In this document: in pieces, positions 490-8,963 of the stretch
How the letters are laid out: the number at the start of each line of letters is the position of its first letter
Position numbering within the stretch: position 1 is the first letter of the stretch
Assembly: GCA_048882505.1 (NCBI GenBank)
Contig: JBHLRO010000048.1
Coordinates: 1-8,963, forward strand
From: Candidatus Thorarchaeota archaeon
GTDB lineage: Archaea; Asgardarchaeota; Heimdallarchaeia; Hodarchaeales; Hodarchaeaceae
Direction of reading: 5' to 3'
DNA: 8,963 bases
Translations under genes and position numbers: made by a program
Notes under the pieces: generated by a model
Database searches by the model: none
What the model was told of the DNA's origin: nothing
Seen by the model: only the letters and a program-made list of their open reading frames with translations

Positions 490-528
490 CTAACTCTTCT
501 ATCCAACACTTGCTGTAACAACGTAGCC

Positions 529-608
529 AGACATCAGATCGCTCCATTTCCACTGACTCTCCTCATCTGTTCGTCTCTTGCCTCCTAATCCTATCTGCCG
601 ATTGGGCC
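529..608 (+). repeat. Dispersed bipartite repeat, copy A (complete)
   Basis: Left arm AGACATCAGATCGCTCCATTT (529-549), pyrimidine-rich middle, right core TCCTAATCCTATCTGCCGATTGGGCC (583-608). Confidence 0.9.
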
Positions 609-741
609 ACAATAATCGGGATATTTTTGCTCCTACACCTTTGTTCCCTTCTAGATTATTACGATCTTCTCTAAACGATTTCAATAGAAGTAAAAGATAC
701 TCTCAAAATATAAACCAATCCCTCTCCAACGATTATTGTGG
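607..741. repeat. 135-nt segment bounded by a perfect 12-bp inverted repeat (possible MITE)
   Basis: CCACAATAATCG (607-618) is the exact reverse complement of CGATTATTGTGG (730-741). No target-site duplication seen. Confidence 0.4.
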
Positions 742-2391: not shown

Positions 2392-3018
2392 ATGAAAATT
2401 AACAAGCTTTGGTATAGTAAGGACTCAAATGTATGGACTAACGCATTGGATAACTACTGGAGTTATATTAAACCCTCGAACATGGCGCTAGAGCGAGAAT
2501 TAGACTCACTGGATCCAATTATTGTAAGCAGAATTAATGTTTCAGAGTTTTACGCCTTTTTGCTACATAAATATTTTAAATGGAAGTATACCGCTCCTCA
2601 CAGGTATGCAAGTACAACGAAATTCCTTAAGCAGTACCCAAGCGGTACGATGTCTGATCTTGGCAAAATCAAAGAAGCTTTATTTCAATTTGACAAAAAT
2701 GATATCAAGAATGGATTGAAAATAGCTAATAAGATACGGGGATTAGGCCCTGCTGGTGCCTCGGGACTGCTGGCATTATTATTCCCCCAATACTATAGCA
2801 CTGTTGATCAGTTCGTGGTCAAAGCATTATCTGAGATTACGGATCTCCCCCAAAGAACTTTGATAATGAGAATGAAACCCGAATCATTGAGCTTGAAGGA
2901 TGGAGCTTTATTAATTCAGATAATGCGGGATAAAGCTAAAGCACTCAATACCGCTTTTAACACGAATTTTTGGACTCCCAGAAAAGTAGATATGGTGCTA
3001 TGGACCTATGGTAGGTAA
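2392..3018 (+). CDS. HhH-GPD-fold DNA glycosylase-like protein
   Basis: Helix-hairpin-helix IRGLGPAGASGLLALL followed by STVDQFV (VD motif carrying the conserved Asp), and C-terminal TPRKVDMVLW. GGGGT upstream of the ATG. Confidence 0.65.
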   Translation: MKINKLWYSKDSNVWTNALDNYWSYIKPSNMALERELDSLDPIIVSRINVSEFYAFLLHKYFKWKYTAPHRYASTTKFLKQYPSGTMSDLGKIKEALFQFDKNDIKNGLKIANKIRGLGPAGASGLLALLFPQYYSTVDQFVVKALSEITDLPQRTLIMRMKPESLSLKDGALLIQIMRDKAKALNTAFNTNFWTPRKVDMVLWTYGR

Positions 3019-3091
3019 AAATGGTAGCTTCAGGTTCCAACAAACTTCTCGATGAAGCAGGTGCTGAAAGCATCAAAAATTAATACATAAG

Positions 3092-3108
3092 CATCAGACC
3101 GACCCATT
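3092..3108 (+). repeat. Orphan left arm of the dispersed repeat
   Basis: CATCAGACCGACCCATT is 14/17 identical to copy A (532-548), and the three differences match copies F and G. Preceded by AAAAAT as in E, F and G. No right core follows at the expected distance. Confidence 0.7.
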
Positions 3109-3517
3109 AGATACTAGAGGGATTAAACCACGTTACGCCGCTAGAATTAATTTTTCGTTCTATTTCAAGGCGGTACATTCTATATTTGACGACGAAATTT
3201 GCCAGGTAAAATGCAAAAGCAAAGACCAGGAATACTGAAAAAAACGTTAAATTTCCAATCAAATTTTGAAGATTTGACCCTAGATATTCGTATAATACTA
3301 GAATAAGATTTAAGGAACTGGCAAGGATTGTTACCTTAGAAAAAGCCAATGATTCGAATCTTTTTCGAAATGTTGATCTTTTGTATAAGGGAATTGTAAC
3401 CTTCCAAAAATGATCTTTATAGATAAAGACTGAAAAAATGGAGAGAAGTAGAGTCACCGCGACATACCCAGTCATCTCTATTTGAAACGCAAAGAGTACC
3501 AGGACTATCGTACTCAT
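3107..3517 (-). CDS. Small membrane protein, 3 or more hydrophobic segments (5' end uncertain; start may be ATG 3475)
   Basis: Hydrophobic segments YVAVTLLLSIFSVFIY, VTILASSLNLILVLY and LTFFSVFLVFAFAFYLANFVV. Its stop overlaps the orphan repeat arm, and its 5' end overlaps the GTPase C-half head-to-head. Confidence 0.6.
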   Translation of the reverse strand: MSTIVLVLFAFQIEMTGYVAVTLLLSIFSVFIYKDHFWKVTIPLYKRSTFRKRFESLAFSKVTILASSLNLILVLYEYLGSNLQNLIGNLTFFSVFLVFAFAFYLANFVVKYRMYRLEIERKINSSGVTWFNPSSI

Positions 3518-3850
3518 ATCCTCAATCAGGACATCCCAATATATTTGGTTGGCTGTAAAGGCCTTCTACATAATAAAGCCAAAAGCAAATCATTCCGAAA
3601 GAAGACATTGAAATGGTTAGAGGAAAAAGCGGTCCGTTATGAGGTTGCTGAGGCCATAGACTTAGTAACCGGGGATTTCACGGAAAAGAAAAGTGCATGT
3701 TCAGGTGACGCGGTTTCAATGTCTGAAGGCAAGGAACAAGCAGCTAGGATGGGGGCAGCATATTACGAGGTCAATGTTTGGACAGATGGCCCATTGATTG
3801 AAGAAATCTTTCACGAGATTGTAAATAACCTACCAAAAACCAAGGGTTGA
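3482..3850 (+). pseudogene. C-terminal half of a degenerate Rab/Ras-like small GTPase
   Basis: DIPIYLVGCK (beta5/G4 region, canonical xPxxLVGNKxD), VSMSEGKEQAARMGAAYYEV (alpha4/beta6/G5) and IEEIFHEIV (alpha5). No P-loop. TTG start without SD, and an in-frame stop at 3449. Confidence 0.65.
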
Positions 3851-3892
3851 GGAAGTGAGGATGCTAAGAGGGGTCATAGATACCTTCATCGA

Positions 3893-3970
3893 GCTGTTCT
3901 AGAAAGGAACAGTCCAATCGTCAGATAGGATTAGTATAGATAAGACTTATCGAAAGGTAGAGGAGTGGGG
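3893..3970 (-). repeat. Dispersed repeat, copy C (middle plus right core, inverted; left arm missing)
   Basis: Reverse complement reads CCCCACTCCTCTACCTTTCGAT...ACTAATCCTATCTGACGATTGGACTGTTCCTTTCTAGAACAGC. 29-nt perfect match (3900-3928) to copy E (5439-5467); the middle CCTCTACCT-TTCGAT is shared with copy G. Confidence 0.9.
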
Positions 3971-4174
3971 CATCCAAGGAGCCTCCTGGCCTTTATTTGT
4001 TGAAATCCTAATATCTGCCATGTTCTGTTCGCGATAATAAACATCGAAATCAAGGGTGAATTCTACTCCTGTTCTAAATTCTGGTTCTTGAGTCAACTCT
4101 CGGAGAAATTTTGATTTCAATGAAGGAGGGCCCCCTACCGTTAGAACTCGTACAAATTGTTCGTTTTTGGCCAT
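3947..4174 (-). pseudogene. N-terminal half of a degenerate Rab/Ras-like small GTPase, truncated just after G3
   Basis: Likely start ATG 4174 with GAGGAG SD at 4185-4190. VRVLTVGGPPSLKS (degenerate G1), RTGVEF (Rab-like TxGVEF effector motif), ISTNKGQE (cf. WDTAGQE). The last codons (PHSSTFR*) are read from repeat copy C. Confidence 0.6.
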
Positions 4175-4325
4175 TTGGGTGCCACTCCTCGTTCTATTAC
4201 TCACCTAAAGGCGATCTGTTTCTTTTCCAGAGAAGACATAGGGGTAGATATCCCCTTTAAGAGTCCTTCATTCTAGGCCTTTCTACCAAAAATCCTGTTA
4301 CAATTACCTGTTTATTGGCTCTGTA

Positions 4326-4369
4326 TCCTCATCCGATCTGACAATCCGACCACTCGTTTCAACACGATT
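4326..4369 (+). repeat. Dispersed repeat, copy D (degenerate right core plus extension)
   Basis: TCCTCATCCGATCTGACAATCCGACCACTCGTTTCAACACGATT aligns without gaps to copies B and F. Confidence 0.75.
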
Positions 4370-4574: not shown

Positions 4575-4985
4575 TTAGTATCGATACTCTTTAACTCTCA
4601 GATTCTGGATAGATGGTAAATCTTTCTCGGTAGTATGAAGAACAAGGCTTTCATTCAGTACATATGCAATGACTAAACAATCAAAGTACGAAAGTATTCT
4701 TCTATATTGACACTTTAATCCTCCTGCCTTCAGGATTATATCATTTGATAACGATACAAATATTACTGGATAATTCTTCTGGAAAGCACTTACGCTTGAT
4801 TCAGCAAAGGATTTCCCGTTGGCTATACATAAATGCTTGAATACTTCAACTAAAATCGGAAAAATAACATAAGCTTCAGTTTTTTGTTGTTTAATATCAT
4901 TCATGAGGCTTGTTATTTCTTTAGGCTCGTCCTTAGTAAAGTGAAGTGTGATAGGCCCTGTATCAAGACAGATTCTCCCAGGCAT
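4575..4985 (-). CDS. vapC: PIN-domain toxin (VapC family)
   Basis: N-terminal ICLDTG, ILVEV, LSYFDCLVIAYVLNESLVLHTTEKD follow the PIN acidic-residue pattern. ATG overlaps the antitoxin stop (TAATG at 4983-4987). Confidence 0.9.
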   Translation of the reverse strand: MPGRICLDTGPITLHFTKDEPKEITSLMNDIKQQKTEAYVIFPILVEVFKHLCIANGKSFAESSVSAFQKNYPVIFVSLSNDIILKAGGLKCQYRRILSYFDCLVIAYVLNESLVLHTTEKDLPSIQNLRVKEYRY

Positions 4986-5224
4986 TATTTTTCTAACTCC
5001 AGTTCGGCTTCCCTAGATCTTTTCAGGATTTCCAGCATTTGTTTTGTAGTAATAGATCGCTTTTGGAGAGTTTTAATACTCTCAAGTGGAATGATTTTCA
5101 ACATTCCTTCATCCTCTACGACGATAACTTGATCTCCATCTTGCAGGCCATATTTTCTCCTTAAACTAGCCGGAATAGTAACCATCCCACGATTGGTAAC
5201 TTTCACGATCCTATCAAGCGTCAA
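4985..5224 (-). CDS. vapB: AbrB/MazE/SpoVT-family antitoxin (VapB)
   Basis: IVKVTNRGMVTIPASLRRKYGLQDGDQV is the classic AbrB swapped-hairpin signature. TTG start with AAGTGAT upstream; translationally coupled to vapC. Confidence 0.9.
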   Translation of the reverse strand: MTLDRIVKVTNRGMVTIPASLRRKYGLQDGDQVIVVEDEGMLKIIPLESIKTLQKRSITTKQMLEILKRSREAELELEK

Positions 5225-5265: not shown

Positions 5266-5377
5266 GATTTATGCTTAGAGTTTGGCCATCTTTTGTTCCT
5301 TTTTTTTTCTATCTTTTTGAATTATCGGGGGTATGCGATATAGGACAACCTAGAAAAACCAGGAAAAAATGATCAAC

Positions 5378-5474
5378 AGACATCAGATGGCTCCATTTCC
5401 CCTGTTTTTCCACGATTGTCCTTTTTTCTATCCTAACACTATCTGACGATTGGACTGTTCCTTTCTAACATAGC
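5378..5474 (+). repeat. Dispersed repeat, copy E (complete)
   Basis: Left arm AGACATCAGATGGCTCCATTT (5378-5398); right core TCCTAACACTATCTGACGATTGGACTGTTCCTTTCTA (5431-5467). Confidence 0.9.
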
Positions 5475-5520: not shown

Positions 5521-5832
5521 TCATATGAAAGAGTGATCATAATTCTTCACTCCTAAAAAGGTGATAAGTGAAATCATTTCTTCCCATCCTTGTTTTCGAA
5601 CTTTTCCCCTAATGAAAGATCCTCCTTTCTCGTTTAGGGTTCGCTTTATTGGAAGAAAGAAAGGTCCGTAATTTAGCTTATACGCATTTACACAAATATC
5701 TCTATAGTCATCAGTTTCATGCACAATTTCGAATTTTATCAGAATAGCTCCATGACCAAAGAGATGACTAAGGATCCCTCCTCTCTTTATTTTTATAAAG
5801 CCGCAGTCATTGATATCGGGTTCTTTTAAAAA
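5521..5832 (-). pseudogene. Start-less open frame, possibly the 3' remnant of an unknown gene
   Basis: The frame of track ORF 5521..5724 stays open to 5832 (...CGFIKIKRGGILSHLFGHGAILIKFEIVHETDDYRD...) with no ATG/GTG/TTG upstream of 5724, and overlaps the FG-GAP stop. Confidence 0.4.
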
Positions 5833-7435
5833 TTAGTAGTATTGAAATTAACCCGAGACTAAGTAAAGTGGGCATTAATGAAATTGAACTAGCCTGAGTT
5901 AAGATTAATACTGGAAATGGATATAGAACCATATAACTTTTCCCTGCCCTAACTCCACTGTCCCCATTCCATTTTGCACCGATAATAAAGTCATTGAATC
6001 CATCTTTATTTACATCGCCAGTTCCAGAAACAGAACTACCAAACAGATCATTCTGTGATTCTCCTGTAAAGGTAGCATTAGCTTCAGAAATGGGTGTATC
6101 CATCTCCCATTGTTCAGTAGTTTGGCCAAGAAAAAGGTAAGCTCGACCAGCATCGACTCCACCCTTGTCATTTCGATTTGCTGTAATAATGAAATCATCT
6201 AGGTTATCCCCGTTTGTATCACCCAATCCCGCTCCTGACCATCCTGCTTGATCTCCTGCCGCTTCTCCGATAAATGAGGCATCCGCTGCTGATAAGCTCA
6301 TATCCATGTTCCATTCCGTCGTCTCACGCCCAAGAAAGAGATAAATCTGACCAGCAGTATCCCCTCCTTCATCGTTACCAATTGCGCCAATGATAAAGTC
6401 ATCATACCCATCATTATTTACGTCCCCAGCACCAGAAACACTATTCCCTAATTCATCCCGTGCGTTTTCTCCGATAAATGATGCATCAACTCCTGAAAGA
6501 TCCACATCCAAATGCCATTCGCCCGTTGCACGCCCAAAAATAAGATAAGCTTGTCCAGCAAAAGACCCTCCTTCATCGTTACCCCCTGCCCCAATCATAA
6601 TATCATCATAATCATCATTATTGATATCCCCTACAATCTCTATATTAATTCCTACCTCATCATCTGGTTCTTCTCCGATAAATGAGGCATCTGCCGCTGA
6701 TAAGCTCATATCCATGCTCCAATCCGTCGTCTCACGCCCAAGAAAGAGATAAACCTGACCAGCATTATCTCCCCCTTCATCGTTACCAGGTGCGCCAATA
6801 ACAATGTCATCATACCCATCATTATTTACGTCCCCAGCACCAGAAATACCTGTTAATGTATCTCCAGTAGTTGCAATAAATGAGGCATCCGCCGCTGATA
6901 AGCTCATATCCATGCTCCATTCCGTCGTCTCACGCCCAAGAAAGAGATAAATCTGACCAGCATTATCCCCTCCTTCATCATTTAATGGTGCGCTAATCGC
7001 TAAATCATCATAATCGTCATTATTAACATTTCCTATCCCAGAGACTTCAAATCCAGACCAATCACCGCTTGCTTCACCAATTAACGAAGCATCTGCATCC
7101 GCTAAAGACGGATCAGCATTCCATAATTCTGTATCTCGACCGAATACAAGATATGTCTGCCCCGTATTTGCTCCTCCTTCATCATTAAATAGCGCACTAA
7201 TCGCAAAATCATCAAATCCATCATTATTAACATCTCCTGTGATAGTCACATCCGATCCTGACCAATCTTCCTCAAATTCTCCAGTATATTCGACAACTCT
7301 GACATCATCGTGAATTGCATAGGCTCGAACACTGCCATTGGAAACAGATAGAGAATTTTGAAATTGTAAAATAGTCGTTTGAAAGAAGCTTAAAAATAGA
7401 AGAATAATGATAAACAAAAATCTAGAGGTTCTCAT
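5807..7435 (-). CDS. Cell-surface FG-GAP (integrin-alpha-like) seven-bladed beta-propeller protein
   Basis: N-terminal signal peptide (MRTSRFLFIIILLFLSFF). Seven repeats of G(D/N)xNxDxxxD...A...G..Y, with DxNxDGxDD-type Ca-binding loops and ~68-aa period. C-terminal TM plus basic tail (LMPTLLSLGLISILLIFKRTRYQ). GGTG SD at 7443-7446. Confidence 0.9.
   Translation of the reverse strand: MRTSRFLFIIILLFLSFFQTTILQFQNSLSVSNGSVRAYAIHDDVRVVEYTGEFEEDWSGSDVTITGDVNNDGFDDFAISALFNDEGGANTGQTYLVFGRDTELWNADPSLADADASLIGEASGDWSGFEVSGIGNVNNDDYDDLAISAPLNDEGGDNAGQIYLFLGRETTEWSMDMSLSAADASFIATTGDTLTGISGAGDVNNDGYDDIVIGAPGNDEGGDNAGQVYLFLGRETTDWSMDMSLSAADASFIGEEPDDEVGINIEIVGDINNDDYDDIMIGAGGNDEGGSFAGQAYLIFGRATGEWHLDVDLSGVDASFIGENARDELGNSVSGAGDVNNDGYDDFIIGAIGNDEGGDTAGQIYLFLGRETTEWNMDMSLSAADASFIGEAAGDQAGWSGAGLGDTNGDNLDDFIITANRNDKGGVDAGRAYLFLGQTTEQWEMDTPISEANATFTGESQNDLFGSSVSGTGDVNKDGFNDFIIGAKWNGDSGVRAGKSYMVLYPFPVLILTQASSISLMPTLLSLGLISILLIFKRTRYQ
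6263..6979. repeat. Near-identical intragenic blade repeats inside the FG-GAP gene
   Basis: 6263-6438 vs 6671-6846: 163/176 identical. 6270-6373 vs 6876-6979: 101/104 identical (manual counts). Blade period 204 nt, with one interval of 198 nt. Confidence 0.9.
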
Positions 7436-7733: not shown

Positions 7734-7828
7734 AGTCACCAGACCGCTCCTCCATTTCTATGCTCCTTCAATTGTTCTTCTTTCTCCTAATCCTATCTGA
7801 CGATCGGACCGCTCGTGTCTGAAGACAG
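7734..7828 (+). repeat. Dispersed repeat, copy F (complete)
   Basis: Left arm AGTCACCAGACCGCTCC (7734-7750); right core TCCTAATCCTATCTGACGATCGGACCGCTCGTGTC (7785-7819). Confidence 0.9.
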
Positions 7829-8873: not shown

Positions 8874-8890
8874 CAGAGAAAAAATTCAAC

Positions 8891-8963
8891 AGACACCAAA
8901 TCGACCCGTTCCCCCTCTACCTCTTCGATTGCATTTGAATTGTCTCCTAACACTATCTGACGA
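8891..8963 (+). repeat. Dispersed repeat, copy G (cut by the window end)
   Basis: Left arm AGACACCAAATCGACCCGTT (8891-8910); right core TCCTAACACTATCTGACGA (8945-8963). Begins 17 nt after the TIM-barrel stop. Confidence 0.9.

Follow-up and report, generated by a model that had tools for sequence, protein, structure and literature searches.

The window analysed in this work, a stretch of 8,963 nt, comprises the entire contig C48 of a 4.3-Mb archaeal genome (83 contigs, 94.6% complete). A repeat of about 90 nt is present in this genome in 26 copies on six small contigs. Copies share their orientation per contig, the sole reversed one among the 26 being that at positions 3897-3970 of the window. 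Seven repeats are found in the window, where they account for about 7% of its length. The relevant features are as follows:

528-609, plus strand: intact array repeat
2266-2316 (partial), 5377-5465, 7734-7819 and 8890-8963: other array repeats
3088-3108, plus strand: orphan left core of a broken 23S-trailer repeat; left breakpoint at 3108/3109
3109-3970: inverted segment of 862 nt (filler, C-terminal GTPase part and right part of the repeat)
3109-3450, minus strand: filler, a membrane-protein gene fragment with its 3' end cut at the junction; low GC (32%), hydrophobic segments
3497-3850, plus strand: C-terminal GTPase part (end of alpha3, beta5, an insertion, alpha4, beta6, alpha5); frame open from 3452
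3897-3970, minus strand: spacer and right core of the broken repeat
3971-4174, minus strand: N-terminal 68 codons of a small GTPase (beta1, degenerate P-loop, switch I, degenerate G3)
4257-4364, plus strand: partial 23S-trailer repeat, head of the GTPase cassette

Elsewhere in the window, a zinc-ribbon membrane-gene cassette (1-602) shares 95% identity with the end of contig C47 but has a different neighbour past the right core. An AbrB/MazE-type antitoxin and PIN toxin pair (4575-5224) forms a separate cassette, as in integron arrays. A weak HEPN-like ORF (1245-2219) and an ORF of 208 aa with no match in Pfam (2392-3018) both run against the usual cassette direction and adjoin a partial repeat. 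Positions 5807-7435 code for a secreted-type protein with about seven acidic repeats of 68 aa, FG-GAP-like by appearance. A sigma-70 scan, for which the model is ill-suited to archaea, yielded matches at chance level.

The N-terminal half starts with ATG at 4174 on the minus strand, 10 nt downstream of a ribosome-binding site (GAGGAG, approximately 4185-4190). Its frame runs through 68 native codons to 3971, continues for seven junction codons in the inverted repeat and ends at a stop codon (3947-3949), giving a coding capacity of a 75-aa stub at most. Its likeness to the family extends as far as the final native codon (an equal score is reached by 2% of random peptides). On the plus strand, the frame of the C-terminal half is open from 3452 to 3850 but alignable to its homologue only from 3497; residues encoded by 3452-3496, taken as native alpha3, are matched in score by 28% of random peptides. 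An earlier sequence-only reading had noted that this half lacks a start supported by a Shine-Dalgarno (SD) sequence, and indeed none precedes either of the candidate starts, TTG 3482 and TTG 3545. The C-terminal half alone scores 17.2 bits on the Pfam Ras profile (PF00071), which is under the cut-off. Both halves are free of stop codons.

When the two halves were searched separately against 60 related genomes, the best match of each was the same 222-aa ORF (G014:C282; E-values of 4.4e-4 for the N-terminal and 2.7e-8 for the C-terminal half). This ORF was also top for both in two panels, the first of 46 GTPases (35 of them the genome's own) and the second of 47 from the genus. The N-terminal half aligned with residues 4-50 (20.2 bits) and the C-terminal half with residues 99-212 (34.0 bits), which bears out the earlier description of the halves as complementary and non-overlapping. 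The comparison with homologues proposed at that time could have returned different paralogues for the two halves; this outcome was not seen. Both halves also fit the subfamily profile and, as judged from these matches, they derive from one parent gene, even though they share only about 33% identity with the best homologue.

Relative to this homologue 28 residues are lost (alpha2, beta4 and most of alpha3), or about 14 codons if 3452-3496 is native, and thus fewer than the 35-40 codons given originally. The missing middle of the GTPase is absent from every frame of the window and from the array contigs. In the Ras fold beta4 is a central strand of the sheet. As it is lacking here, complementation between the halves would not be possible even with both of them expressed.

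The 222-aa homologue scores 27.1 bits with PF00071, above the cut-off, and Rab1 is its nearest relative among PDB structures. By the usage for Asgard proteins (PMC10933270), 'Rab-like' is thus a reasonable designation. The GTP-binding motifs assigned in the sequence-only reading fared less well than the halves carrying them: while the GTPase halves are real, G1, G3 and G4 are all non-canonical. In the P-loop (GxxxxGK[ST]) the glycine before the lysine is replaced by leucine in the N-terminal half and in most subfamily members. Of the G3 motif (DxxG), which is present in some relatives, the N-terminal half retains the glycine but not the aspartate, a residue often missing in the subfamily. The G4 motif ([NT]KxD) is missing from the C-terminal half and throughout the subfamily. 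Since this degeneracy is common to intact relatives, it is older than the break. The end of the C-terminal half contains no cysteine and so differs from eukaryotic Rab proteins with their prenylated C-terminal cysteines. By their motifs, members of the subfamily are possible pseudo-GTPases. A search of the genome with the subfamily profile returned 43 small-GTPase frames, nearly all with a canonical P-loop. Two further degenerate Rab-like genes are broken in this genome (G000), one by a frameshift (C4:11761-12313) and one reduced to a fragment (C6:101175-101438). In another genome a single ORF of 557 or more aa contains several tandem degenerate small-GTPase domains (L009:1-1686; G003:C107).

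Between the left core and the C-terminal GTPase part lies a filler of approximately 340-390 nt, the right edge of which falls between about 3440 and 3496. Its GC content is 32%, compared with 41-43% in the GTPase halves, and the GC change point maps to 3437-3452. The filler is open in one frame only; an opening in any frame was obtained in 8 of 5000 shuffles. Its stop codon (3107-3109) was created by the junction, and its 3' end is therefore truncated. Hence, the antisense membrane-gene segment described in the earlier reading is a genuine coding fragment, with the correction that it is a truncated one. The filler is single-copy in the genome. No relative was found in the 60 genomes (apart from one weak match with stop codons), in two protein searches or in the Atlas (best 0.83). 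Two other identities were considered for the filler and rejected: (i) an IS or MITE, as terminal inverted repeats (best terminal match 5/8), a target duplication and a transposase were all not found; (ii) a recoded or frameshifted insertion of the GTPase, as each of the five other frames contains 4-11 stop codons.

The array repeat was verified to be the trailer of 23S rRNA. Copies on contigs C45 and C52 are located directly 3' of 23S 3' fragments. The repeat and the 23S leader of contig C38 form a duplex (-85 to -111 kcal/mol), in which a bulge-helix-bulge is located at the right core. Alone, the repeat rebuilt as described below folds weakly (-7.5 kcal/mol), and an attC hairpin with R and L boxes was not found in it. 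Cassettes common to several contigs change neighbours in the right core. The same organization is seen on a contig of a second genome (G007:C8; L068-L070, 6687-54756), where 20 repeats, all in one orientation, extend across 47 kb behind a 23S 3' end. Reports of 23S-end arrays in Asgard archaea were not found in a literature search. One protein of the tyrosine recombinase family (PF00589) was found in the genome; it is encoded on contig C5, far from the arrays.

The G007:C8 array also contains two orphan 23S 3' fragments (model positions 2721-2973). Orphan fragments in two genomes (L025:1819-2129 and L021:1160-1471 on G000 contigs C45 and C52, and those in L069 and L070) have this equal model span, which suggests that a second fixed joint may exist within the 23S gene. 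A second full-length archaeal 23S gene (G000:C57:307-3242, part of it in L026) is about 75% like the C45 and C52 fragments and has another leader and trailer; it could be either a divergent rRNA type or contamination.

Breakpoints were mapped with a repeat model that had been trained on other contigs only. As found, the left core (3092-3108) scores 3.2 bits and the reversed right part 27.8 bits. Flipping 3109-3970 produces one repeat copy of 40.9 bits that covers model positions 5-90, and a grid of alternative breakpoints has its maximum at 3108 and 3966-3973. In the 3108|3970 join the core-to-core spacing is 63, which is the modal value among intact copies; the break on the repeat side thus lost nothing. 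At the score of the orphan left core, two background hits occur in 8.4 Mb outside the arrays. The rebuilt copy also pairs with the 23S leader across its break. With both halves best matching one homologue and the flipped join rebuilding a repeat, the earlier proposal that one gene was broken by an inversion is supported.

That reading had further called the rearrangement repeat-associated. As a statement of cause this finds no support: only one of the breaks lies in a repeat, and neither a partner repeat at the gene-side break nor an inverted repeat common to both breaks was detected. Moreover, the repeat-side break falls within the spacer, and the right core, at which shared cassettes switch, is about 45 nt away. 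Given this offset and the other break without a repeat, the inversion is explained neither by repeat-by-repeat nor by site-specific recombination. At the share of the window occupied by repeats, the landing of one of two breaks in a repeat is not rare and needs no special cause. The bulge-helix-bulge site was considered as a site of breakage and rejected because of the same offset of about 45 nt. The present 3970/3971 joint is located in the loop of an imperfect hairpin (3952-3994) which ranks among the 1-3% most stable windows, an observation made post hoc; the other two joints are not among the most stable hairpin windows.

We consider it likely that the locus represents a recent pseudogene produced by an illegitimate inversion, one-off and near-reciprocal, in which DNA was deleted and the filler captured. 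The ancestral cassette, part of a variable array behind a 23S rRNA gene, would have carried an intact, P-loop-degenerate Rab-like gene, encoded on the minus strand, with a trailer repeat behind it. In one illegitimate event with two breaks the intervening piece would have been flipped. The first break, in the repeat spacer, would have lost nothing, and the second, inside the gene, 14-28 codons. At the left joint a piece of approximately 340-390 nt from an unrelated membrane-protein gene would have been captured, such that the right repeat part was joined straight to the N-terminal part, and the left core to the C-terminal part via the filler. Two breaks and one captured fragment could thus account for all three junctions. 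The event may have proceeded through end joining or through template switching at a stalled fork; the same picture is expected from both. The predicted outcome is a 75-aa N-terminal stub and a C-terminal part without a start, and no beta4. In Escherichia coli, near-reciprocal non-homologous inversions with small losses or gains at the junctions have been explained by template switching inside a single fork (PMC3161906). The filler of more than 340 nt exceeds the junction insertions of that precedent, which speaks against the present reading. The absence of stop codons from both halves fits a recent event, and the pseudogene is probably recent.

A close homologue or intact allele was detected neither in a search of 5.8 billion proteins nor among 1.84 billion representatives, in which the only other match (P0003) was an unrelated repeat protein of 1673 aa. 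Scans of metagenome and genome contigs likewise returned no intact allele. The ancestral state is thus reconstructed rather than observed.

Of the alternatives, one invokes two repeats and two events: the membrane-protein gene would be a native cassette, a deletion would have joined it to the left core, and a separate inversion with deletions would have flipped the C-terminal GTPase part together with the right part of the next repeat. In line with this scenario, the filler shares the minus strand with most cassette genes. Foreign capture would be unnecessary, and as all repeats are alike, pieces of two copies could seem continuous. However, four or more breaks are needed instead of two, and independent breaks in two repeats would have to fall at an equal position within a few bases to give the spacing of 63. 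We therefore regard it as unlikely.

An artefact of assembly or library preparation (a chimeric join or an amplification chimera) might be suspected in a short, 9-kb MAG contig from a repeat-rich region. Yet a Logan contig covers 2200-5600 in one piece with no differences and at a depth of 27.5 (27.4 for another repeat-bearing contig). No alternative joint at either breakpoint is present in the contigs, from which rare variants are dropped, and the sequence at the breaks is too short to confuse an assembler. The Logan contig results from assembling the probable source run anew and does not represent an independent sample; a match of 197 nt in a second sample spans no junction, and a raw-read run yielded no coverage of the locus. 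On balance, an artefact appears very unlikely.

The low identity to the best homologue and the tandem occurrence of the subfamily in related arrays leave room for halves that come from two different GTPase paralogues or that act as a split protein. Against this stand the shared top match in two panels, the lack of overlap, the order restored by flipping, the lack of a start signal in the C-terminal part, the missing beta4 and the failure to find stand-alone relatives of either half in large protein searches, and we judge both versions highly improbable. A programmed, shufflon-like inversion acting as an on/off switch of the GTPase is hardly credible despite the clean repeat-side break inside a recombining array, because the segment is not flanked by inverted sites, the break is off the usual joints, the tyrosine recombinase on C5 is remote, a second form was not seen in the contigs (in which rare variants are dropped), and reversal of the inversion leaves the gene defective: the N-terminal part then reaches a stop after two codons, and the filler remains.

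The earlier suggestion that the gene family could be shuffled in this manner is not supported, as the central beta4 was lost and no useful fusion resulted. Inactivation of the gene is likely, but it concerns one of about 40 paralogues in a subfamily already devoid of canonical motifs; one dead paralogue in one population matters little by itself. The locus does provide a base-resolved illegitimate inversion with apparent filler capture in an uncultured Asgard lineage, among the closest prokaryotic relatives of eukaryotes. It also illustrates that motif-degenerate and broken copies are included when the small GTPases of Asgard archaea are counted.

Of more interest than the broken gene are the array-borne intact members of the subfamily. 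Seven of them are present in the G007:C8 array, all on the strand of the N-terminal half in the window, and further ones occur in G002, G016 and YT5_056. Intact subfamily members are thus recurrent cargo of 23S-trailer arrays. Within loci of about 3 kb, the repeat was found at 3 of 18 degenerate and at none of 12 canonical GTPase genes. Two of these three repeat-bearing loci were first found via the repeat, and the closest homologue (G014:C282) has no repeat on its 7.4-kb contig, so that enrichment of degenerate GTPases near trailer repeats is suggestive, not established. The occurrence of the subfamily in trailer arrays of several genomes offers a testable route for expansion and turnover of a eukaryote-signature family. 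Whether trailer arrays of this Hodarchaeales genus serve as a birth-and-death nursery, in which motif-degenerate Rab-like proteins are acquired, swapped and destroyed as cassette cargo, is a tentative and rather doubtful proposition. If true, the locus would be a snapshot of illegitimate joining that also imports foreign DNA into the array.

In shufflons and other invertible segments (Rci/sfx, Hin/hix) an inverted segment alters the 3' part of a gene. The inversion described here likewise changes the 3' part of a gene, but it has no inverted sites and no invertase nearby, and it is not reversible to a working gene. It has more in common with the E. coli inversions (Lin et al. 2011, PMC3161906), which are also shorter than 2 kb, one-off, without long homology at the breaks and with small junction loss. 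It differs in the unrelated coding fragment of more than 340 nt at one joint, in its archaeal host, in being deduced from one genome, and in that stalling hairpins are not shown in the ancestral sequence. Thor-Rab and other Asgard Rab-like GTPases (PMC10933270) resemble the subfamily in their Ras-family fold signature, the large set of paralogues and the absence of prenylatable C-terminal cysteines, whereas in the subfamily canonical G1 and G4 motifs are missing and alpha4 is preceded by an insertion, and its copy in the window is broken. Finally, although their repeat is a 23S rRNA trailer instead of an attC hairpin, no integrase adjoins them and the inversion occurred off the cassette joint, the arrays are similar to integron cassette arrays and to the CALINs of archaea (Ghaly et al. 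2022, PMC9668308) in having co-oriented repeats between modules of one to three genes, recurrence of these modules in varied neighbourhoods and toxin-antitoxin cargo.
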